From Nostoc sp. PCC 7120 = FACHB-418 (lineage in GTDB: Bacteria > Cyanobacteriota > Cyanobacteriia > Cyanobacteriales > Nostocaceae), in NCBI RefSeq assembly GCF_000009705.1, contig NC_003272.1, positions 3,570,001 to 3,602,000 of the forward strand: a DNA stretch of 32,000 nucleotides. The letters run 5' to 3'. The notes beneath the pieces were generated by a model. The model saw nothing but the letters and a program-made list of their open reading frames with translations. It ran no database searches and had not been told where the DNA came from. A program made the translations under genes and the position numbers. Positions 3,576 through 31,225 of this stretch are shown here, piece after piece (position 1 is the first letter of the stretch; the number at the start of each line of letters is the position of its first letter).

Positions 3576-5180
3576 GTGCGCCTGTTGACAACAGTTGCGG
3601 CTTTACGCTGCTATTTAAATAAACGTCGCTGGGAAAGTCGGCTGACAGCATCAGAAGAACAGATACTAGATAGTATGACTAGCTGGTATCAAACTGCGAT
3701 TGGCCTGGTGCCAACAATGGGGAGTTTACATCAAGGCCATTTGAGCCTGATTGAACGAGCGCGGCACGAAAACTCTACTGTAATTGTGAGTATTTTTATC
3801 AATCCTCTGCAATTTGGCCCAAATGAGGATTATGGAAGGTATCCCCGCACTTTAGAACAAGACCGACAATTGTGCGAGCAAGGGGGAGTTGATGCGATTT
3901 TTGCCCCTTCTCCGGAAGAATTAGGCATACCTCAGAAAAATATACAAGAATCTCAAGTTACACAAGTAATCCCTCCATCTGTTATGATATCTGGCTTGTG
4001 TGGTCATTCTCGGTTAGGTCACTTTCAGGGTGTGGCGACGATTGTGACCAAGCTTTTGAACTTGGTACAACCTGACCGAGCTTATTTCGGTCAAAAAGAT
4101 GGTCAGCAGTTAGCTGTGATTAAACGGCTGGTGGCTGATTTAGATTTGCCTGTAGAAATTGTTGCTTGTCCCACTGTGCGGGAAGCATCGGGTTTAGCCT
4201 GTAGCTCTCGCAACCAGTATTTAACTGCTCAAGAAAAACAGCAAGCAGCAGTATTGTATCGTGGCTTGCTGCAAGCTGAGGCTGCATTTAAGGCAGGTGT
4301 CCGCTATAGCAGTAGGTTGCGAGAAGTGGTACGGCAGGAATTAGCCAAGGTTAGTAGTGTTTTAGTGGAATATATAGAATTGGTTGAACCGACTACGTTA
4401 ATGCCATTAGATAAAATTCAGGAGGAAGGAATGCTGGCGATCGCTGCTCGTCTTGGCTCTACACGTTTGATTGACAATACCATTTTGCGCGATCGCCAAC
4501 CTATCATCGCTATTGATGGGCCAGCCGGTGCAGGAAAATCCACCGTGGCTCGTCAAGTAGCAACTAAACTCGGTCTAGTGTATCTAGATACAGGAGCGAT
4601 GTATCGTGCTGTGACTTGGTTGGTGCTACAACAGGGTATTGCCATTGACGATGATTGCGCGATCGCTGAATTAGCGAGCAAGTGTAAAATCGAGCTAACT
4701 CCTAGCCAAGATTTACAATCTCCGGTGCGTGTTTGGATTAATGATACTGATGTTACCCAGAACATTCGCACGATTGAGGTGACTTCTCAAGTATCGGCGA
4801 TCGCTGCTCAAGCTGCTGTACGTCAAGCGCTAGTGAAGCAACAACAACGCTGGGGTAAACGCGGTGGACTGGTAGCTGAAGGTAGAGATATTGGTACTCA
4901 CGTATTTCCTGACGCTGAAGTAAAAATCTTTTTAACCGCCTCCGTGGGTGAACGCGCTCGTCGTCGCCAGCAAGACTTTCAAAAACAAGGTCAACCAGAA
5001 GTCAGTCTAGAACAGCTAGAAAAAGACATCGCTGAACGCGATTGGAAAGATAGCACTCGCAAAGTTTCCCCTCTACAAAAAGCAGCAGATGCAGTTGAAC
5101 TGCAAACAGATGGACTCAGCATATCGGATGTTGCTAGCCAAATTGTTGATTACTACCAACAACGCTTGTCTCAATGGTAG
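3576..5180 (+). CDS. panC: Bifunctional pantoate--beta-alanine ligase / cytidylate kinase (PanC-Cmk fusion)
   Basis: GTG start at 3576. The N-terminal half has VPTMGSLHQGHLSL and FGQKDGQQ (PanC). The C-terminal half has the P-loop IAIDGPAGAGKST and DTGAMYR (Cmk). This fusion is typical of cyanobacteria. Confidence 0.95.
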   Translation: MRLLTTVAALRCYLNKRRWESRLTASEEQILDSMTSWYQTAIGLVPTMGSLHQGHLSLIERARHENSTVIVSIFINPLQFGPNEDYGRYPRTLEQDRQLCEQGGVDAIFAPSPEELGIPQKNIQESQVTQVIPPSVMISGLCGHSRLGHFQGVATIVTKLLNLVQPDRAYFGQKDGQQLAVIKRLVADLDLPVEIVACPTVREASGLACSSRNQYLTAQEKQQAAVLYRGLLQAEAAFKAGVRYSSRLREVVRQELAKVSSVLVEYIELVEPTTLMPLDKIQEEGMLAIAARLGSTRLIDNTILRDRQPIIAIDGPAGAGKSTVARQVATKLGLVYLDTGAMYRAVTWLVLQQGIAIDDDCAIAELASKCKIELTPSQDLQSPVRVWINDTDVTQNIRTIEVTSQVSAIAAQAAVRQALVKQQQRWGKRGGLVAEGRDIGTHVFPDAEVKIFLTASVGERARRRQQDFQKQGQPEVSLEQLEKDIAERDWKDSTRKVSPLQKAADAVELQTDGLSISDVASQIVDYYQQRLSQW

Positions 5181-8717: not shown

Positions 8718-10436
8718 CTAATCTTGAAAAATCATAATGTTACCAGAATAACAAGCTACCCAAACTTCTCTAGTTTGTGGATCGTAAGTAATACCGATGG
8801 GATCAGGTTCAACTTTGACTTTTTGTAATACCTTCATGTCACTAGTCCGAACCTTACTAACCGTATCTTCACCGTAGTTCACAACATAAAGTGTTTGACC
8901 ATTAGCTGATAAAACCATACTCCGGGGAGCATTACCTGTAGCGATTTTCTTGACTAAATTACCTTGAGGCAAGCTGATTTTAGCAATTTTGCCTTCACCA
9001 TTTAAAGAAGCATAAAGATATTTACCCGCAGGATCAATATTCAAGTGACGCGGCGAACTACCAATGTTCCGCAGCCACTGTACAGAAAAATCTCTCAAGT
9101 TAACTTTAGCAATGTTGTAAGACCCCATAACAGCGACGTAGGCTGTTTCGGAAGCTGGATCAACGACAATTCCGCGAGGATAGGGGCCTAATTTGATCCG
9201 TTTAATTTCTTGATTTTGATTAATATCTACCACACTCAAATCCCAAGAACACCAGTTGCTCACCAGTATTAGGTTCTCATCGGTAGAAGTAGCCACAAAT
9301 TTTGGTACAGAACCAACTGGAATAACTCTGTCTATCTTGAGGGTTTCTGTATTAATGCGATATAAAAAACTCTTATCTGTCTTCTGAGATGGATGACATT
9401 TATCACTACCGGGGTTATTAAAACCAGGGCCGTACATTTGATAGTTAGATATCCAAGCATACTTGCCATTATGGGAAAAACTAGCTTCAACTGGAGCGCC
9501 TCGATACTTACCCTTGAAGCGGGAATGACCATATTTAGATAAATCCACTTCGTCGGGGATAACTTTAACTAATTCATAGTTGCGGTCATATACAGTAATT
9601 GTGTGGTTATACATCATATTTTGGGCAAAGAATAAACCATTACCCGAATAAACCACTGATTTAGGAGAAATTTTCCCAGAAATAGTTTTGATTAGCCGCA
9701 TTTTTTGTGAGGGACTGGGAGGCGCAGCTGATTGGGGTGATATTTTTACCTGATTTTGTGGCTGCTGTGTTAAAAAAGGTTCGAGGGTAGTTTTTTGAGG
9801 TAACGAAGCCGCTAATTTTCTGGTACTTGATGCTAAAACTGATGATGTTTGTGGCCCGACAATCCCATCAACAACGAGCCGATTAGCTTGTTGAAATTGA
9901 ATTACAGCTGCTTGGGTTGCAGCATCAAAATTTCCAGTAATCGCTCCTTGATAGTACCCATCGGCTTGTAGTTTTTCTTGCAAAGACATGACCCTATCGC
10001 TAATATCACCCTGTTTGAGAGAAGATTTAGACGTAGCTATTTGGGGATCTGTGATACTAGATTCTGATACACCTATACTAGATTCTAAAGCTGCCAAGGT
10101 TGCTGCCCCAACAATTCCATCAGCCTTTAAACCATTAGCTTGTTGAAATCTCTTCACAGCTGCTTCAGTGACAGAACCAAAATATCCTGTGGCAACTTGG
10201 GGAAAATATCCGCTTGCTCGCAACTTTTGCTGGAGTGATGCTACCTGAGGATTTCTGTGACCTTTTTTCAAAGCAGCCACAGTAGGAAGACACCAATTTA
10301 AAGAACCCATTGCAAAAGAAGCCACCAACATTAAAGCGCTACTCTGGTTCTTTGTCCAAGGTATTTCTGGGGAAGATTCATCTGTGGTAGATGTTTCATA
10401 AGTCTCAGCCAAATGCAAATAAGCAAGTGTGTCCAT
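8718..10436 (-). CDS. Membrane-anchored protein with two peptidoglycan-binding (PG_binding_1) domains and a C-terminal YVTN/YncE-like beta-propeller
   Basis: Two repeats of the form LQ.KL...GY......G.F...T..AV..FQ.AN.L..DGIVG..T are present. The C-terminal half has repeated ...P.GI..DP....YVA.. blades (YVAVMGSYNIAKV, LYASLNGEGKIAKI, LYVVNYGEDTVSKV, VWVACYSGNIMIF). Confidence 0.85.
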   Translation of the reverse strand: MDTLAYLHLAETYETSTTDESSPEIPWTKNQSSALMLVASFAMGSLNWCLPTVAALKKGHRNPQVASLQQKLRASGYFPQVATGYFGSVTEAAVKRFQQANGLKADGIVGAATLAALESSIGVSESSITDPQIATSKSSLKQGDISDRVMSLQEKLQADGYYQGAITGNFDAATQAAVIQFQQANRLVVDGIVGPQTSSVLASSTRKLAASLPQKTTLEPFLTQQPQNQVKISPQSAAPPSPSQKMRLIKTISGKISPKSVVYSGNGLFFAQNMMYNHTITVYDRNYELVKVIPDEVDLSKYGHSRFKGKYRGAPVEASFSHNGKYAWISNYQMYGPGFNNPGSDKCHPSQKTDKSFLYRINTETLKIDRVIPVGSVPKFVATSTDENLILVSNWCSWDLSVVDINQNQEIKRIKLGPYPRGIVVDPASETAYVAVMGSYNIAKVNLRDFSVQWLRNIGSSPRHLNIDPAGKYLYASLNGEGKIAKISLPQGNLVKKIATGNAPRSMVLSANGQTLYVVNYGEDTVSKVRTSDMKVLQKVKVEPDPIGITYDPQTREVWVACYSGNIMIFQD

Positions 10437-12045: not shown

Positions 12046-12083
12046 ATTTTATATCGGACTCATACTTGATTTTTGAAATTTAG

Positions 12084-12134
12084 GTAGGGCAATGCTTACC
12101 TTATCATGGTTTTGGTGGGCAATGCCCACCCTAC
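12084..12134. repeat. Palindromic dispersed repeat (GTAGGG..GGTGGGCAATGCCCACCCTAC type)
   Basis: GTAGGGCAATGCTTACCTTATCATGGTTTTGGTGGGCAATGCCCACCCTAC. A near copy lies at 13757-13811 in the same orientation. Confidence 0.7.
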
Positions 12135-12174
12135 AGATACTGAGAATTTTATACCTAATTACCTAACAAATAAA

Positions 12175-13650: not shown

Positions 13651-13756
13651 ATAATTTTTAATGCTGCTTCTGTAAGAATAAGGATTTAAAGTAAGTAGAA
13701 AAACAACTGTTAATTGACATTAACTATAAGATTCATACTCGATCTATAAAATTTAT

Positions 13757-13811
13757 GTAGGGTGGGTATTACCCATCGGCTCATGGTTTTGGTGGGCAAT
13801 ACCCAGCCTAC
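13757..13811. repeat. Second copy of the palindromic dispersed repeat
   Basis: GTAGGGTGGGTATTACCCATCGGCTCATGGTTTTGGTGGGCAATACCCAGCCTAC shares ...TCATGGTTTTGGTGGGCAAT.CCCA.CCTAC with 12084-12134. Confidence 0.7.
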
Positions 13812-13850
13812 ACATACTTATATTTTTCAACAATCAAATCTGATTTATAT

Positions 13851-15952: not shown

Positions 15953-16068
15953 TATAGCTGGGGACTGGGGACTGGGGACTGGGGACTGGGTGAAAAATCT
16001 TTTTGTGTCTAGGTTGTATCATTTTTGTATCATTTATTGATGTCCTAACACTAATGGCGACAGCTATA
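15953..16068 (+). mobile_element. MITE-like element, 116 bp, with 8-bp TIRs TATAGCTG/CAGCTATA and 4.5 copies of STRR1 (GGGGACT)
   Basis: TATAGCTG-(GGGGACT)x4.5-GGTGAAAAATCTTTTTGTGTCTAGGTTGTATCAT...GATGTCCTAACACTAATGGCGACAGCTATA. An inverted copy lies at 22379-22477. Confidence 0.65.
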
Positions 16069-19384: not shown

Positions 19385-19451
19385 TACCAACTCTGCGGCA
19401 AAATACAGACTAAGCTGATGCGCGTCTAAATTGCATAACTACTAATAATCG

Positions 19452-19477
19452 CTGTTAACTGTCAACTGTCAACTGTC
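19452..19477. repeat. STRR-like tandem heptamer AACTGTC x3
   Basis: CTGTT AACTGTC AACTGTC AACTGTC, in the convergent intergenic region. Confidence 0.8.
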
Positions 19478-19525
19478 CTCACAATGGATTGTGCAACTTA
19501 AAAGCAGAATAGCTTACTTGATAGT

Positions 19526-20740
19526 TTAATCCAACACAGCTAAAACAGATTTTGGCAATAATTTATCTTTAAACCAAATGATTTTTGCCGGCACATTATC
19601 CAACTTAACTCCAGCTTTTTCCAAATTCAATCTTTCGGAAATAGCCAAGATTAAATTATCACAACCAGAACGCCGCACTTGGGAAAACTTCTTTTGTAAA
19701 TATTCTGGTCGCCAATAACCAACTATTTCTAATAAAAATTCTCTCCCATCAGGATGAACTAAGCGAAAGTCGGGAATCATCACACTCCCAGGAATGGGAA
19801 TTAAATCTACTTCTCTTTCTAATACCCATGCTGTTTTTAAAGCATCCCATTTATCAGCAAAGGATGCTTCTAACATACTATCGTAGGGTTTCCCTTTGGA
19901 GTAATGAGAGACTAAACCACACTCGGAATTAAGGGTAAATCTGCCTGTTTTCCATGTATCTGTGTAGACATCACGGGTTTGTAATGTGGCTGCTAGACTC
20001 CATTTGGTGACATGAAGTAAGGCGGGGATGAGTTTGGCGATCGCTAACCCATAGCGTGTACTAGAATTAAATAAGCTGGTCGGCCCATCAACGGTGATTG
20101 TAAAGCCGTGGTCAGCATCGCCTTCAATATAAGCCATGAGTTGAAATAGCTTCAGATAGCGGAATAACAGTTTATATTCCCCTGGAACATTGCGATGAGC
20201 ATTTAAAATTAACTTGCTGGCTTTATAGAATATTCCCTGCACCTGGGACAAGTTATAGCGATTTAATATATCTACTGGTGTGGGGACATCAAAGTTTGTC
20301 AAAATTTTATTTTCAGACAAATCAGCATAAAGTCCATCACGGACTTGTTCTGATAAAACTTCCCGTTCTAATTCTTGAGTTAATTCATCAGCAATCTTGC
20401 TCAATGTCAGTTGTGTTGATTCCCGACTAGGTGCAGATTTCGCAGCCAAAGAAAATACCCGTTCTCTTAACATTGGTGGTTCTAGAGGACTCACTACTTC
20501 AAAGGTGCAGAAATTGCTTTTGATAATGTAAGCTAAACCCCGTTTTACACGATAATCTGTAGCGTCTCCTTCTAAATCCAAAAGTTGATTTTCTAAAAAG
20601 CCTTGAGTCTTACCTTGTGCTGCTTGAAAACAACTGATTAATTCATTAGTTAAATCTATGGTTTTCTGATCAATCTTCAGTCTTTTTGGTATTATTTCTT
20701 CGCCGTTTAGGCGATGGCTGAGGAGTTCCGTTGGTAGCAT
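19526..20740 (-). CDS. DUF790 family protein (Bax1-like PD-(D/E)XK endonuclease, partner of XPB-type helicases)
   Basis: ATG at 20740. The N-terminal MLPTELLSHRLNGEEIIPKRL is typical of DUF790. The C-terminal core is YDSMLEASF...WVLEREV...MIPDFRLVHPDGREFLLEIVGYWRPEYLQKK (E...D...E-x-V/K nuclease fold). It lies immediately downstream of the helicase and overlaps it. Confidence 0.82.
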   Translation of the reverse strand: MLPTELLSHRLNGEEIIPKRLKIDQKTIDLTNELISCFQAAQGKTQGFLENQLLDLEGDATDYRVKRGLAYIIKSNFCTFEVVSPLEPPMLRERVFSLAAKSAPSRESTQLTLSKIADELTQELEREVLSEQVRDGLYADLSENKILTNFDVPTPVDILNRYNLSQVQGIFYKASKLILNAHRNVPGEYKLLFRYLKLFQLMAYIEGDADHGFTITVDGPTSLFNSSTRYGLAIAKLIPALLHVTKWSLAATLQTRDVYTDTWKTGRFTLNSECGLVSHYSKGKPYDSMLEASFADKWDALKTAWVLEREVDLIPIPGSVMIPDFRLVHPDGREFLLEIVGYWRPEYLQKKFSQVRRSGCDNLILAISERLNLEKAGVKLDNVPAKIIWFKDKLLPKSVLAVLD

Positions 20741-22223
20741 TTCCCTGGTTGTTAGCTGATGAATTATCGACTACATAATTGATTTCTATTTGCTCGGCAG
20801 CTTTAGCGGTTGTTCCCTTACCACTGCCATAAACTACTTGTAAATTTGCTTTCTTATCTTCCCCGCGTCGCCGTGCCGAAGTATTTTCCTCACTGGTATC
20901 TTCCGCTATCACTTCATATAAAATCGCCTGTTTATTTTGAATATTTCCCTTACGTAAAATTCTTCCTAAACGTTGAATATATTCTCTAGTTGAACCTGTC
21001 CCAGATAAAATAATGGCGATAGCAGCAGCCGGCACATCAACACCTTCATTCAACACATGGGAAGCAACTAAAGTATTATATTCACCTTCTCGAAATTTAG
21101 TTAAAATTTCGTGGCGTTCTTTGACTGGTGTTTGATGAGTAATGGCGGGAATTAGTAAATCTTGAGATATTTTATAAACGGTAGCATTATCAGCCGTGAA
21201 AATTAACACTCGTTCTGGATAATGCTTGGCGAGTAAATTAGCTAAAATTCTTAACTTGCTATCAGTACCCAAGGCGATTTCTTTGGCTTCACGGTGCGCT
21301 AACATAGCTCTACGTCCAGATTGCGATCGCGCACTCATCTGCACAAACATCTGCCAGCCTTGTATACTACCCAAGGAAACCTTTGATTGGCGCAAAAAAT
21401 CGTTGCGAATTTGAATTAAATTGTTGTATCTTTCCCGTTCCTGCTGGGATAACTTCACCTTAATTTGCACAATTTCGTGTTCAGCTAGCGCCTTCCCCGC
21501 CAAATCTTCAGCACGTTTGCGGTACACTTCCTGACCAATGAGAATATTCAAATCGGCGTGTTTACCATCGGTGCGTTCTGGGGTGGCTGATAATCCCAGA
21601 CGGTAGGGAGCGATCGCATACTCGGCAATCACTTTGCTAAAATCGGTAGGTAAATGATGGCACTCATCAAAGACAATCAAAGCATACTGATTCCCCAAGG
21701 CTTCGGCGTGAATGGCTGCACTATCGTAAGTTGCAACTAAAACTGGTGATTTATCCCGCGAACCACCCCCAAGTAACCCCACTTCAGCATCGGGAAACGC
21801 CGCCACCAAATGAGCATACCATTGGTGCATCAAGTCTAAAGTCGGCACAACAATTAAGGTAGTCCGTGGTGTGGCCTGCATCGCCAACTGCGCCAGATAA
21901 GTCTTTCCCGCCGCCGTTGGTAACACCACCACCCCCTGTCTTCCCGCTAGTTTCCAAGCTGCTAGAGCCTCACTCTGATGGGGATAGGGTTCCATTTCTA
22001 AACTAGGAACCAAATCTATGGGGTAAAATTGCTTGGCTTCATCGATGAAAAATACGTCTTCCGCTTGCAGTGCTTCCACCACAGCGCGATATCTCATCGC
22101 CGGAATCCGAAATTTTTCTACTCTATCATCCCACGTAGCATAATCCATCCAGGCTTTGCCCCGTGGTGGTGGATGCAGAATTAGTGTACCGCGATCGTAG
22201 CTTAAGGTGGGAGTGCGAGCCAT
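20670..22223 (-). CDS. XPB/ERCC3-like superfamily 2 DNA helicase (DEAD/DEAH, ResIII type)
   Basis: ATG at 22223. Motifs present are LPTAAGKT (I), FDECHH (II), GLSATPERTDG (III plus the position of the XPB RED motif), LNEGVDVP (V) and QRLGRILR (VI). The N-terminal LSYDRGTLIL resembles the XPB damage-recognition domain. The C-terminal tail is low-complexity and basic. Confidence 0.88.
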   Translation of the reverse strand: MARTPTLSYDRGTLILHPPPRGKAWMDYATWDDRVEKFRIPAMRYRAVVEALQAEDVFFIDEAKQFYPIDLVPSLEMEPYPHQSEALAAWKLAGRQGVVVLPTAAGKTYLAQLAMQATPRTTLIVVPTLDLMHQWYAHLVAAFPDAEVGLLGGGSRDKSPVLVATYDSAAIHAEALGNQYALIVFDECHHLPTDFSKVIAEYAIAPYRLGLSATPERTDGKHADLNILIGQEVYRKRAEDLAGKALAEHEIVQIKVKLSQQERERYNNLIQIRNDFLRQSKVSLGSIQGWQMFVQMSARSQSGRRAMLAHREAKEIALGTDSKLRILANLLAKHYPERVLIFTADNATVYKISQDLLIPAITHQTPVKERHEILTKFREGEYNTLVASHVLNEGVDVPAAAIAIILSGTGSTREYIQRLGRILRKGNIQNKQAILYEVIAEDTSEENTSARRRGEDKKANLQVVYGSGKGTTAKAAEQIEINYVVDNSSANNQGNATNGTPQPSPKRRRNNTKKTED

Positions 22224-22324
22224 TGGAAAATTGGGGAATTTGGGAACCTCTCTAAGAATAAGGGGTGATGGTAACTGATACTAGAATACCAATTCCGTGT
22301 TCCAAGAAGAACCCCTCCCCTGCT

Positions 22325-22348
22325 AGGCTACCGTCTACACACACAAGT
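22325..22348. repeat. Solo terminal repeat related to the 6727-6968 MITE end
   Basis: AGGCTACCGTCTACACACACAAGT compares with AGGCTACCGTGTACACACAAGT at 6732-6753. Confidence 0.45.
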
Positions 22349-22378
22349 CTGATCAACCTTGCCCCATAACCCATTAAT

Positions 22379-22477
22379 TATAGCTGTCGCCAGTAGTGTT
22401 AGGACATCATATAGATGATACAACCTAGACACAACAAGACTTTTCACCCAGTCCCCAGTCCCCAGTCCCCAGCTATA
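22379..22477 (-). mobile_element. Inverted copy (99 bp) of the TIR/STRR1 MITE-like element
   Basis: The reverse complement reads TATAGCTG-(GGGGACT)x3.5-GGTGAAAAGTCTTGTTGTGTCTAGGTTGTATCAT..GATGTCCTAACACTACTGGCGACAGCTATA. By hand alignment it is about 90% identical to 15953-16068. Confidence 0.65.
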
Positions 22478-22494
22478 ATAGCTCACAACCTAAG

Positions 22495-24855
22495 TTAGTT
22501 AGAAGAGGATGAATTAGGTCTAAGTCTTTCCCGCCAAGAAGGTGTTGGTGCAGAACTGGCCGAGCCAGAGCTATTATCTACTGTGGATGAAGACCGTCGA
22601 GACCTGCGGGACGGTTGTGAAGTATCTGATTCTACAACTGGTCTGCGCCGTCTTGTGCGGGGTGATTCTTCACTACCACTAGAACCTGATTCTTGGCTAC
22701 GATATCGTCTACGTCTTCTAGGTGAATCAGTTGGAGTGGTTTCTTCTAATCGTTGGGAGCGCCTTCTGCGTCTGCTGGAAGAACCAGTCTCTTGCGCTGA
22801 CTCTTCATTAGGTGTCAGAGAACGATTGAGAATTTGTTTTGCTTTGATGGGTTTTGCTTTGATGCTGCCCTTGCGACCTTCCAGTTTTGGTCTTTCGGGA
22901 AATTTTTCTATTGGCATTCCCTCTATGGCTTTTTCCATAAATTCATGCCAAGTGTAAGCAGCACTGCCACTACTACCATAAGTAGGACGATTATTATCGT
23001 TACCCAACCAAACCCCTGTAACTACTTGGGGAATATAGCCAATAAACCATAAATCGCGGGCTTCATCAGATGTACCTGTCTTACCAGCAACGGGTCTATT
23101 AGGCAATTGGGCGGCTGCACCAGTGCCTGCTTCGACCACGTTACGTAACATCCAGGTCATAATAGCGGCACTAGTAGGATCAAGCACTCGCTTCGAGTCA
23201 AATTTTGCTGACCAGATGACCTCACCTTTGCGGTTGAGGATACGACGGATGCCATGAGGTTCCGAGTGTAACCCAAGGGTTGCAAAACTGCCGTAAGCAC
23301 TGGTTAACTCTAAGAGATTAACTTCATTGGAACCAAGGGCTAGAGAATAATGAGGATTGAGTTTTGATTTAATCCCCATGTTCTTGGCTAGTTGAATTGT
23401 TGGCTCAAATCCCACATCTAGCATGATTTTCAACGCGACCACATTCACCGAACGGGTGAGGGCATCGCGCATATTCATTGTGCCTCGGAAGGTTTCCCCG
23501 TAGTTTTTCGGTTCGTAACCATCGACTACAACGGGAGCATCTACATAAGTATCGTTGGGGTTTTTACCAGTGGCGATAGCTGTCGCATAGACAAAACCCT
23601 TAAATGTGGAACCTGGCTGGCGTTGCGCTTGGGTAACACGGTTAAATTGGTTTTGACCAAAGTCTTGACCCCCAACCATTGCCTTGATTTCCCCATTACG
23701 GGGATCGATGGCAACTAAAGCGGCTTGTTTGAAGTTTTGCCATCGTCCTTGATTGCGTAAAGTTTTAGCAACGGCTGCTTCTGCGGCTTGCTGCCAAGTT
23801 GGGTTTAAGCTGGTTTCCACAGTTAAACCCCCATTCGCTAACACTTCCGAAGAAACATACTTGGGCAATTCTTGCTGAATATAGCTGGTGAAGTAGGGGG
23901 ATTCTACTTGTAACCGCTTGGGTAAACTAGATTTGAGGGTAATTACTGCTTGGGTGGCTGCTTGCCTTTGGGCTGGTGTAATAAAGCCCTCTTTTTCCAT
24001 CCGTTGCAATACCAAATTTCGTCGTTGTTTGGCTGCTTGCGGGTTTTTGTCTGGTGAAAATAAGCTCGGTGCAGGAGGCATTCCCGCGATTGTTGCCGCT
24101 TCCGGGAGGGTAAGTTGGTCTACTGGTTTACTGAAGTATACCCAGGCTGCATCTGCTACACCATAAGCCCCAGCACCTAAATATACTAAATTCAAATAAC
24201 GCTCTAAAATCTGGTCTTTGGTTAATTCTTGTTCTAGCTTTTGGGCAAGGCGTACTTCCTTAAGTTTGCGCCAAACTGTACGCTCTTGTTTGAGGAAAAG
24301 AATCCGTGATAACTGTTGAGTAATCGTGCTACCACCTTCTACCACATTTTGCGATCGCAAATTATTTACGGCTGCTCTGACAATTCCTTGGGGGTCAATA
24401 CCTTGGTGCTGAGTGAATCTGCTGTCTTCGGAGGCAATAAAAGCATTTTTGAGGATCTCCGGCATCTGCTCCAGATTGACTTTTTCCCTGGTTGCTTCGC
24501 CTTGCTGTTGTAATATAGTGCCATCAACAGCTTTGATGGTAATTGTTTGCTCACGGACGACAGCTTGCAATTCCGCTTTCTCAGGTAAGGTTTTATCGAT
24601 TTCCCCTAATAAGTAATTGAAGGCAATGATGCTACCACCTACACTTAAGCCCGCCCAAAACCATACACGGCGATAAATTGGGTGTTCACGGCTTGTAAAC
24701 CTAGTAACAATCCCAGATGTTATACCACTTATCTGGTTTAATAATTTTTTTTGTCTTACCACCTGAGTTGGCGGTAAGTTCTCGTTTGTGGTTTCCTCTT
24801 GCTCGTAACGATTACTAGGTGGCAAGCGTGGTTCCCCCTTGTCAGAGTCACTCAA
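22495..24855 (-). CDS. Class A penicillin-binding protein (PBP1A-type bifunctional transglycosylase/transpeptidase) with an Arg/Ser-rich C-terminal tail
   Basis: The glycosyltransferase motifs are ASEDSRFTQHQGID, GGSTITQQ and RKLKE. The transpeptidase motifs are GSTFK, SVN and KTGTS. The start is non-ATG (TTG at 24855, or GTG at codon 32). Confidence 0.93.
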   Translation of the reverse strand: MSDSDKGEPRLPPSNRYEQEETTNENLPPTQVVRQKKLLNQISGITSGIVTRFTSREHPIYRRVWFWAGLSVGGSIIAFNYLLGEIDKTLPEKAELQAVVREQTITIKAVDGTILQQQGEATREKVNLEQMPEILKNAFIASEDSRFTQHQGIDPQGIVRAAVNNLRSQNVVEGGSTITQQLSRILFLKQERTVWRKLKEVRLAQKLEQELTKDQILERYLNLVYLGAGAYGVADAAWVYFSKPVDQLTLPEAATIAGMPPAPSLFSPDKNPQAAKQRRNLVLQRMEKEGFITPAQRQAATQAVITLKSSLPKRLQVESPYFTSYIQQELPKYVSSEVLANGGLTVETSLNPTWQQAAEAAVAKTLRNQGRWQNFKQAALVAIDPRNGEIKAMVGGQDFGQNQFNRVTQAQRQPGSTFKGFVYATAIATGKNPNDTYVDAPVVVDGYEPKNYGETFRGTMNMRDALTRSVNVVALKIMLDVGFEPTIQLAKNMGIKSKLNPHYSLALGSNEVNLLELTSAYGSFATLGLHSEPHGIRRILNRKGEVIWSAKFDSKRVLDPTSAAIMTWMLRNVVEAGTGAAAQLPNRPVAGKTGTSDEARDLWFIGYIPQVVTGVWLGNDNNRPTYGSSGSAAYTWHEFMEKAIEGMPIEKFPERPKLEGRKGSIKAKPIKAKQILNRSLTPNEESAQETGSSSRRRRRSQRLEETTPTDSPRRRRRYRSQESGSSGSEESPRTRRRRPVVESDTSQPSRRSRRSSSTVDNSSGSASSAPTPSWRERLRPNSSSSN

Positions 24856-30665: not shown

Positions 30666-30896
30666 ATGAGCTATCGCAATATTATCACTATTGAACCAGA
30701 TAAACGAGGTGGTAAGCCCTGTATTCGACGAATGCGAATTACAGTGTACGATGTTCTGGGGTGGTTAGCTGCTGGTATGTCCCATGCAGATATTTTAGAA
30801 GATTTTCCTGAATTGACAGAGGAAGACATCAGAGCCTGTCTAGAATTTGCTGCTGATCGTGAACATCGTTTAGTTGCTTCAGTGGGTGATGCTTGA
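30666..30896 (+). CDS. DUF433 protein (predicted antitoxin of the DUF433/PIN-like pair)
   Basis: DKRGGKPCIRRMRITVYDVLGWLAAGMSHADILEDFPELTEEDIRACLEFAA is the canonical DUF433 pattern. Confidence 0.85.
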   Translation: MSYRNIITIEPDKRGGKPCIRRMRITVYDVLGWLAAGMSHADILEDFPELTEEDIRACLEFAADREHRLVASVGDA

Positions 30897-31225
30897 AGTT
30901 ACTTTTTGATCAAAATTTGAGTCGCAAATTGGTGACAAGATTGGCGGACATATACCCTGGTTCTAGCCATGTTCAGTTTCATGGGTTGGCAGAGAAGACT
31001 GATACCGAAATATGGCAATTTGCTAGAACCAACGACTTTTGTATTGTGACTCAAGACGCAGATTTTGCTGAGAGAAGCCGCCTGTATGGTTCTCCGCCTA
31101 AAATTGTATGGTTACGCTGCGGCAATGTTCCAACTAATCAAATCGAAGTCTTAATTCGTTCTGGAGTAGAAGCAATTGAAGAGCTTTTAAATAACCCTAA
31201 TTTACATTGCTTAGAACTCTATTAG
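30893..31225 (+). CDS. DUF5615 / Mut7-C-like PIN-fold protein (predicted toxin)
   Basis: The TTG start overlaps the upstream TGA (TTGA at 30893-30896). It has (M)KLLFDQNL, the acidic QDADF and the family pattern ...KIVWLRCGN. Confidence 0.82.
   Translation: MKLLFDQNLSRKLVTRLADIYPGSSHVQFHGLAEKTDTEIWQFARTNDFCIVTQDADFAERSRLYGSPPKIVWLRCGNVPTNQIEVLIRSGVEAIEELLNNPNLHCLELY

Follow-up and report, generated by a model that had tools for sequence, protein, structure and literature searches.

Two overlapping genes on the minus strand of a 32,000-nt stretch of Nostoc sp. PCC 7120 DNA (NC_003272.1, positions 3,570,001 to 3,602,000; hereafter the window, whose own numbering is used throughout) encode an XPB-type superfamily 2 (SF2) helicase of 517 aa (20670..22223) and a Bax1-type endonuclease of the DUF790 family of 404 aa (19526..20740). 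By most of the criteria tested, this pair belongs to the known XPB–Bax1 family, and it does not represent a new mechanism. It probably is the bacterial orthologue of archaeal XPB–Bax1 and serves chromosome maintenance in heterocyst-forming cyanobacteria. In the sequence alignments, the bacterial subfamily departs from the archaeal proteins in three respects: a small residue in the "RED" motif, a short form of Bax1 and a basic tail on the helicase. An initial annotation of the window had presented the pair as its best candidate for an undescribed system; this view is not supported, as each of the two proteins is a clear homologue, over its full length, of its counterpart in the crystallised archaeal XPB–Bax1 complex.

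A helicase and a nuclease of the XPB–Bax1 family

The two open reading frames (ORFs) lie exactly where the initial annotation had placed them, and all the motifs that it quoted were located in the two proteins. The helicase gene was assigned from its ORF, Pfam and alignment with chains of known structure, the nuclease gene from Pfam, Protein Data Bank (PDB) chains and an AlphaFold2 (AF2) model. The 3' end of the helicase gene and the 5' end of the nuclease gene overlap by 71 nt in different frames (20670..20740, minus strand, as are all the features of this section), the final 23 codons of the helicase coinciding with the start region of Bax1. Most Nostocaceae loci share this geometry (the helicase ends 68 nt plus a stop codon inside Bax1), whereas outgroup pairs have a 1-14-nt overlap or a 6-nt gap instead. 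Of 86 loci, 78 have the helicase upstream of Bax1. The full-length homology and the 71-nt overlap bear out the idea that the helicase is coupled to a DUF790/Bax1-like nuclease as one unit. The pair is already described in databases as "DUF790 family protein" beside "DEAD/DEAH box helicase". From gene order, it presumably corresponds approximately to all2951/all2950; a literature search on the tags all2950 and all2951 found nothing. The chromosome CP183817.1 (6.41 Mb) encodes an identical protein, as does another assembly.

The profile hidden Markov model check named in the initial annotation gave four Pfam matches for the helicase, XPB_DRD (E value of 1.6e-26), ResIII (6e-25), Helicase_C (5e-20) and ERCC3_RAD25_C (1e-17), and a match of the nuclease to DUF790 (2.7e-155, 517 bits for a cut-off of 28.8) that spans residues 1-403 of the protein and positions 1-387 of the 387 of the model. 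These values exclude a chance match for both proteins.

Residues 7-457 of the helicase align without large gaps to A. fulgidus XPB (AfXPB, chains 6p66_A/2fwr_A, E 1e-102) and residues 28-453 to S. tokodaii XPB2 (StXPB2, E 4e-100), while yeast and human XPB align in two pieces with E values of 1e-22 to 1e-25. The helicase is therefore of the archaeal type, considering the end-to-end archaeal alignment and the far weaker, split eukaryotic matches. According to these alignments, the protein holds a damage-recognition domain (DRD), both RecA-like domains and a long thumb insert. The DRD (residues 7-63, 22035..22205) covers the whole Pfam model PF18458 XPB_DRD (positions 1-57 of 57), which confirms that the segment LSYDRGTLIL, at residue 7, belongs to an XPB damage-recognition domain, as had been supposed.

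The SF2 motifs I, Ia, II, III, V and VI align with those of AfXPB and StXPB2 and are invariant among the bacterial relatives. Walker A (motif I), PTAAGKT (residues 102-108, 21900..21920), faces PTGSGKT of AfXPB, and its G106 and K107 are invariant among five bacterial XPBs. Motif II, FDECHH (residues 185-190, 21654..21671), was placed by alignment; D186, E187, H189 and H190 are invariant in the alignment of the bacterial XPBs, as are Q417, R418, L419, G420 and R421 of motif VI, QRLGRILR (residues 417-424, 20952..20975), which is identical to that of AfXPB. SATPERTDG begins at residue 212 and NEGVDVP at residue 392.

The sequence R217-T218-D219 (21567..21575) aligns with R-E-D of AfXPB and is a variant of the XPB "RED" motif. 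The initial annotation was correct in pointing out R-T-D in place of the archaeal and eukaryotic R-E-D, though the middle residue varies anyway: R217 and D219 are invariant in bacterial XPBs, in which the middle position is occupied by T, G, S or A, and S. tokodaii XPB2 carries R-D-D (PMC7672443). The occurrence of R-D-D in StXPB2 and of R-G/S/A-D in bacteria suggests that the middle residue is not strictly defining. R-T-D is probably a trait of the clade and no defect.

The long archaeal-type thumb (ThM) is inserted in helicase domain 2 (approximately residues 270-311, 21291..21416, from the StXPB2 alignment). This stretch aligns without gaps with the part of StXPB2 that holds the ThM residues 258-299, and also with AfXPB. 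W290, which is invariant among the five bacterial XPBs, aligns with the StXPB2 wedge residue F278 (manual mapping of the alignment and PMC7672443). The protein ends with a low-complexity, basic, lineage-specific tail (residues 458-517, 20673..20852) that has no counterpart in archaeal, Deinococcus and Latescibacteria XPB. DNA-dependent ATPase activity with 3'-5' helicase or translocase activity is predicted for the helicase as a property of the XPB family.

The identification of the 404-aa ORF as a DUF790 nuclease also stands, with SMLEASF at residue 288, MIPDF at residue 321 and LLEIVGYW at residue 336. Searches of PDB with the sequence matched the Bax1 chains of A. fulgidus (6p66_B, 1e-30), P. 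furiosus (8gy8_A, 1e-28) and S. tokodaii (7e-25), and also chain 6p4o_B. The AF2 model, built from an alignment of 88 sequences, has a mean predicted local distance difference test score (pLDDT) of 90.1 and a predicted template modelling score (pTM) of 0.82. When this model was used in a PDB fold search, all eight significant matches were Bax1 chains, with a probability of 1.00 over about 400 columns, template modelling (TM) scores of 0.53-0.60 and a root mean square deviation of about 10 Å; this high deviation is consistent with a differing orientation of the domains. In the model, the nuclease has the multi-domain fold of Bax1, composed of an N-terminal, a Cas2-like and a nuclease domain.

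The nuclease core (19727..19870), aligned to the metal site of AfBax1, contains the putative catalytic residues E291, D324 and E338. The metal-binding residues of AfBax1 are E275, D305 and E318 (PMC7293015); the motif I glutamate, E291, aligns one position ahead of the number given for AfBax1 in that study (E274/275). All 78 Nostocales sequences carry E291, D324 and E338 without exception, and these residues are kept in 10, 10 and 9 of 10 other bacteria, respectively. In AfBax1, Y131, D133, Y155 and N156 sit at the interface between XPB and Bax1 (PMC7293015). Their counterparts in the N-terminal domain, the putative XPB-contact residues Y138, D140, Y162 and N163 (20252..20329, AfBax1 alignment), are invariant in the 78 Nostocales and mostly retained in the 10 other bacteria. 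E135 of AfBax1 corresponds to the variable S142, which is followed by a conserved glutamate, E143. Heterodimerisation with XPB and junction-specific cleavage are predicted for the nuclease by analogy.

Archaeal XPB–Bax1 (from A. fulgidus, S. tokodaii and P. furiosus; PDB 6P66, 6P4O, 6P4F, 6P4W and 8GY8) consists of the same two proteins, whose genes have the same order and are adjacent or overlapping. The likeness extends to the DRD, helicase domains 1 and 2, long thumb and R-x-D of XPB, and to the three domains, catalytic E/D/E and XPB-contacting Y/D/Y/N of Bax1. The differences are that the host is here a bacterium, that the nuclease is only about 23-26% identical, that both proteins fall under the NCBIfam equivalog cut-offs, that the RED middle residue is a threonine and that the helicase bears an extra 60-aa basic tail which overlaps the start of bax1. 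In its short form the nuclease resembles P. furiosus Bax1 (375 aa), whereas the A. fulgidus and S. tokodaii forms are longer and have a C-terminal domain.

Eukaryotic XPB (ERCC3/Ssl2), which functions in TFIIH with XPG/XPF, shares a homologous helicase core, the DRD and the RED motif, and likewise couples the opening of a bubble to a junction nuclease; the similarity is however far weaker (E of about 1e-22 to 1e-25) and Bax1 is absent. Its thumb is short, and the protein acts inside a 10-subunit complex (PMC7672443). The XPB of M. tuberculosis is a bacterial homologue with 3'-5' helicase activity, which stands alone and for which no Bax1 partner has been reported (PMC3353954). The helicase of the window reaches 195 bits, in two stretches, on the NCBIfam model NF045503, whose cut-off is 610 bits, yet it aligns end to end with archaeal XPB.

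Conservation of the pair and its relatives

One genome per species was scanned for close relatives, and the best 80 of at least 311 were examined. Close relatives are encoded in at least 311 species genomes; among the best 80, the identity declines from 99% to 77% in step with taxonomy, starting with Nostoc and Anabaena and ending with Calothrix and Rivularia, and all are annotated as heterocystous, save for a few unclassified cyanobacterial metagenome-assembled genomes (MAGs) and one "Leptolyngbyaceae" MAG (95% identity). These 80, nearly all of them Nostocales, include Nostoc, Anabaena, Nodularia, Cylindrospermum, Dolichospermum, Sphaerospermopsis, Scytonema, Calothrix, Rivularia, Richelia and Mastigocoleus. 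The ORFs of both genes are intact in nearly all loci. Compared pairwise with eight Nostocales, both genes have a ratio of non-synonymous to synonymous divergence (dN/dS) of 0.04-0.10, at dS values of at least about 0.9 that are near or past saturation. The genes that flank the pair in the window recur in just 3-5 of the closest genomes: the flanks change and the pair stays. The order-wide distribution, the shuffled flanks and the low dN/dS are what would be expected of a pair that is vertically inherited under strong purifying selection, and not of an island. The survey, which shows an order-wide chromosomal pair with the helicase upstream in 78 of 86 loci, speaks against an accessory island.

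The association is loosened in a few lineages. In the Calothrix/Dulcicalothrix clade, an insertion of 3.5-4 kb parts XPB from Bax1 (L078 6326-9822; also L080, L081, L083 and L085). It encodes a protein with an SLH domain (Pfam SLH, 8e-26) and a GNAT-toxin/TacA-antitoxin pair (TacA1, 2.9e-26). Richelia intracellularis, a diatom symbiont, retains the nuclease; in this species (L075) and in one Calothrix MAG (L086), Bax1 is intact (404 aa, 77-78% identical) and XPB was not found within 10 kb upstream of it. The 2 kb upstream of Bax1 in Richelia intracellularis hold no long ORF. XPB may have been relocated or lost in these two genomes.

Outside the order, a Leptolyngbya MAG encodes a protein that is 65% identical, and the next full-length relatives, at 45-51% identity, come from Deinococcus, Latescibacteria and metagenomic bacteria, among others. 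An XPB_DRD helicase is encoded directly upstream of DUF790 in D. reticulitermitis, in a Latescibacteria MAG and in a metagenomic contig. These pairs from Deinococcus, Latescibacteria and uncultured bacteria are the closest outside relatives (45-51% identity for Bax1 and 47-60% for XPB) and have the same adjacency and a small residue replacing the glutamate of RED. A tblastn search against 72,556 plasmids returned 42 records, which correspond to 12 Deinococcus plasmids and about 30 haloarchaeal megaplasmids, and no copy on a cyanobacterial plasmid. Nearly all of the 42 are annotated "DUF790 family protein" and "DEAD/DEAH box helicase". These results hint that the XPB–DUF790 module travels on plasmids in other lineages. 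The bacterial subfamily that the pair documents is one with an R-x-D motif, a short-form Bax1 and plasmid-borne relatives in Deinococcus. DUF790 also occurs in other arrangements. On an Armatimonadetes contig (L089 3542-7215), its gene is divergent from that of an Hrq1-like helicase (WHD_HRQ1, MZB) and lies near a type IIG methyltransferase/endonuclease gene; in an 8-Mb genome (L090 6001-7233) it is solitary, with no helicase within 6 kb.

Balasingham (2012) reported that a bacterial XPB–Bax1 complex was unknown and that XPB is present in few cyanobacteria, if in any (PMC3353954). A literature search found nothing linking XPB, Bax1 or DUF790 with cyanobacteria. The literature found treats the complex as archaeal only, so the order-wide cyanobacterial pair is unstudied, and the statement in the initial annotation that the function of such a module in a cyanobacterium is unresolved holds true.

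Possible functions of the pair

XPB–Bax1 is structurally well understood, and its cellular role is unsettled even in archaea. If the cyanobacterial pair works like its archaeal counterpart, the two genes would be co-transcribed, and the 71-nt overlap suggests that the translation of the helicase and that of the nuclease are coupled. Bax1 would use its N-terminal domain to contact XPB at helicase domain 2 and at the thumb, forming a 1:1 heterodimer, as suggested by the conserved interface residues and the homology to PDB 6P66 and 6P4O. By reference to the archaeal complex, this heterodimer would encircle about 10 bp at a junction between duplex and single-stranded DNA (PMC7293015, PMC7672443). 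XPB would recognise distorted or forked DNA by means of its damage-recognition domain, R-x-D and long thumb, and its ATP-driven translocation on the duplex would let the thumb residue W290 wedge the strands apart and extend the bubble. The PD-(D/E)XK-type domain of Bax1 (E291, D324, E338) would then incise the 5'-overhang strand near the junction. Candidate substrates are a bulky lesion, a crosslink, a stalled fork or a bubble. The most economical interpretation is that the pair processes lesions or structures alongside UvrABC.

A number of observations weigh against a role of the pair as an orthologue of archaeal XPB–Bax1 in chromosome maintenance. The middle acidic residue of RED is replaced by a threonine in the helicase, and the nuclease has 404 aa instead of the 468-501 aa of AfBax1/StBax1 and lacks their C-terminal domain. 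The helicase scores 194.7 bits on the NCBIfam XPB equivalog NF045503, which it matches in two stretches and whose cut-off is 610, and the nuclease 166.8 and 146.9 bits on the NCBIfam Bax1 equivalogs (cut-off of 500), which are archaeal clade-specific models. The fact that both proteins are under these cut-offs points to a distinct subfamily and not to a near-identical orthologue. The two genes are separated, or Bax1 is without a nearby XPB, in some lineages, and no SOS (LexA) box is present upstream of the helicase. The formation of the bacterial complex, its polarity and its cut site are predictions by homology. Lastly, the deletion of xpb or bax1 in archaea causes no or marginal sensitivity to damage (PMC4471258, PMC7690668), and "repair" is thus unproven even for the archaeal prototype.

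A more specific scenario, which is doubtful, is that heterocyst-forming cyanobacteria have fixed the archaeal-type XPB–Bax1 as a UvrABC-independent pathway of bubble or fork incision, whose regulation would be of a non-SOS type and which would answer a lineage-specific need, e.g., UV or desiccation damage. The cyanobacterial pair would be related to the Deinococcus plasmid copies. If such a second incision pathway exists, Anabaena PCC 7120 would offer, for the first time, a genetically tractable host in which to find the long-missing in vivo phenotype of XPB–Bax1. Independently of this scenario, a complete pair is under purifying selection across a bacterial order that includes the model Anabaena/Nostoc PCC 7120, and a tractable bacterial host has value since the archaeal knockouts have no clear phenotype (PMC4471258, PMC7690668).

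It is also conceivable, although unlikely, that the complex acts on DNA structures rather than on lesions (stalled or reversed forks, R-loops, transcription bubbles or recombination intermediates), in which case Bax1 would be a structure-specific flap or fork nuclease. Nostocales already carry UvrABC, which is in line with such a function. Forks and bubbles in DNA are bound by archaeal XPB–Bax1 and stimulate it whether or not a lesion is present (PMC7293015, PMC7672443), and archaeal knockouts have no clear UV phenotype (PMC4471258). The missing SOS box can be counted in the same direction, and the conserved motif upstream of the helicase (see below) suggests a dedicated, non-SOS regulation. 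However, the damage-recognition domain is intact, genes of replication or recombination are not consistently adjacent to the pair, and nothing in the sequence separates structure processing from the repair of lesions.

The initial annotation had listed action on foreign DNA among the possible roles. The pair would then be an anti-phage or anti-plasmid module, in which the helicase scans and unwinds the invading DNA and the nuclease degrades it; this is improbable in the Nostocales. Two-gene helicase–nuclease defence systems likewise associate an SF2 helicase with a PD-(D/E)XK-type nuclease, and the nearest non-cyanobacterial relatives of the pair are plasmid-borne (the 12 Deinococcus plasmids and the approximately 30 haloarchaeal megaplasmids). 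On a 59-kb plasmid of D. wulumuqiensis (L092), the pair adjoins genes for RepA, a helicase with a NERD domain, an exonuclease of 3'-5' polarity and a type I restriction–modification system; in D. reticulitermitis (L087) it adjoins LmuB_C/MC3/CTD7 genes; the proximity of the Armatimonadetes DUF790 to a type IIG restriction–modification gene can be added to these examples. The Deinococcus pair is thus plasmid-borne among restriction–modification, NERD and Lamassu-like genes, whereas that of the Nostocales is chromosomal, order-wide, 77-99% identical and under purifying selection, conserved like a core gene and unlike the patchy, fast-turnover genes of defence. A recurrent location in defence islands or mobile elements was likewise not seen in the Nostocales, the plasmid-borne copies being those of Deinococcus and haloarchaea.

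Among the defence models of PADLOC, PbeA is matched by the helicase core with an E value of 9e-54, and mREase_IV and DpdF are matched less strongly. The PbeA match is limited to positions 248-638 of the 672 of the model, which are its generic helicase core. PADLOC has no model that DUF790 matches, and the partner genes of Pbe or Dpd are not nearby. The full set of components of a PADLOC system (Pbe, Dpd, DISARM or others) was not found in the pair. In a few Nostocales loci, one of the three genes closest to the pair is DISARM-like (DrmA/DrmD), DpdF-like or a TnpB gene. Among 280 neighbour families (141 + 139), this amounts to a handful of strong matches: three families for DrmA/DrmD, one for DpdF and three for TnpB(Cas12f-like); the other matches are to generic kinases and ATPases. 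The ten nearest genes of the window have no real PADLOC match. Copies were found neither in phages nor on cyanobacterial plasmids. A tblastn search of 50,697 phage records returned nothing, and neither did a pattern scan of IMG/VR, of limited sensitivity as it used only two peptide patterns. Defence was rejected as the principal explanation for the Nostocales, given that DUF790 has no PADLOC match and that the neighbour matches are scattered, and the suggestion of action on foreign DNA does not fit an order-wide chromosomal pair under purifying selection that has no phage or cyanobacterial plasmid copies and no consistent defence neighbourhood. It is kept as a low-probability rival on account of the Deinococcus plasmid contexts.

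Finally, the idea that the genes are a decaying, functionless relic of an old horizontal transfer, to which the splitting of the pair by insertions (Calothrix clade) and the occurrence of Bax1 without nearby XPB might lend some support, is hardly credible and effectively refuted by the selection analysis, since nearly all loci have both ORFs intact, dN/dS ranges from 0.04 to 0.10 at dS of at least about 0.9, and the catalytic and ATPase residues are invariant.

Neighbouring genes, upstream region and repeats

The window contains genes for MltA/3D, glutaminase, PanC-Cmk, an Fe/Mn superoxide dismutase (SodB), MsrPQ, PyrF/E, a Zn-dependent dehydrogenase, a pentapeptide-repeat protein, a class A penicillin-binding protein (PBP), FolK, a NUDIX protein, a two-component pair and YjeF. 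The initial annotation had described the pair as lying between dispersed repeats and next to non-housekeeping genes. The first part of this remark is right, the second is not: the class A PBP, FolK, NUDIX, PyrF/E, MsrPQ, SodB and PanC-Cmk genes of the flanks are housekeeping genes, which is also the character of the window overall.

The three ORFs on each side of the pair were compared in 80 Nostocales loci and yielded 282 families. A PAS histidine kinase is the most frequent (24 of the 80 loci), followed by an adenylate cyclase in 12 loci and a PIN protein in 11. A third conserved component of the system was rejected, as even the PAS histidine kinase is present in just 24 loci, and no replication or recombination gene is consistently adjacent to the pair in this set.

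The gene upstream of the helicase (22495-24855, minus strand) encodes the class A PBP. It is probably all2952, judging from gene order. all2952 has been linked to cell rounding induced by high light (2026 preprint). An operon of the pair with this gene was rejected; the PBP gene adjoins XPB in just 4 of 86 loci and is therefore not part of the module. Downstream of Bax1, the next gene is convergent and encodes the pentapeptide-repeat protein.

The intergenic region upstream of the helicase (22224..22494, minus strand) contains the presumed promoter and includes an insertion that resembles a miniature inverted-repeat transposable element (MITE), at 22379-22477. In many Nostocales, the motif TTTTGCG(T/C)TATTAGTAAT is found about 35-50 nt before the start codon of XPB; exact 9-mers occur in 18-21 of 74 loci (L037, L056, L066, L072, L079, L085 and others), and the motif is degenerate in the window (22224-22290). 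It is unlike the LexA box and the NtcA box and may be a dedicated promoter or operator. No consensus of either box is present upstream of the helicase in the window. Matches to the LexA box with one mismatch number 14 in the window for 7.7 expected, which is about chance, and none of them is upstream of the helicase. In 74 upstream regions from Nostocales, the LexA consensus was found in none and GTAN8TAC in four; control of the pair by the SOS response or by nitrogen was rejected on these counts.

Two inverted copies of the MITE-like element, of approximately 100-115 nt, are located at 15953-16068 (plus strand) and 22379-22477 (minus strand). The element has the ends TATAGCTG...CAGCTATA and carries 3-4 heptamers of the sequence CTGGGGA. 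The copies bracket 6.3 kb with the dehydrogenase, pentapeptide, Bax1 and XPB genes. An exact 20-mer of the element is shared by just three loci, whose strains are identical or nearly so; it is absent from 89 other loci, and the element is unrelated to the pair. A mobile cassette delimited by these repeats was rejected, as the copies are strain-limited and the other Nostocales pairs differ in their flanks. Short dispersed repeats and short intergenic tandem repeats are common in Nostoc genomes. The downstream intergenic region (19385..19525, minus strand) contains such a tract, three tandem copies of the heptamer GACAGTT at about 19455-19480, just 3' of the stop codon of Bax1. On either side of the pyrF/pyrE fusion gene lies one copy of a 73-nt direct repeat (12078-12150 and 13755-13827, 75% identical) that contains palindromes and is probably another small family of dispersed repeats.

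Three observations concern genes farther from the pair. The PG_binding/beta-propeller gene (8718-10436) is intact in the window (572 aa), whereas in CP183817.1 (L001 20305-21215) only 244 aa of it are left and a DDE_Tnp_ISAZ013 transposase comes next; the truncation is a strain-specific insertion of an insertion sequence. At the right edge of the window, a DUF5615/PIN-like protein (6e-37) is encoded at 30893-31225 (plus strand); a DUF433 gene adjoins this gene in two loci (L001 and L002), and the two probably form a toxin–antitoxin pair. At 3576-5180 (plus strand), a single ORF encodes a pantoate–beta-alanine ligase (PanC) fused to a cytidylate kinase (Cmk).

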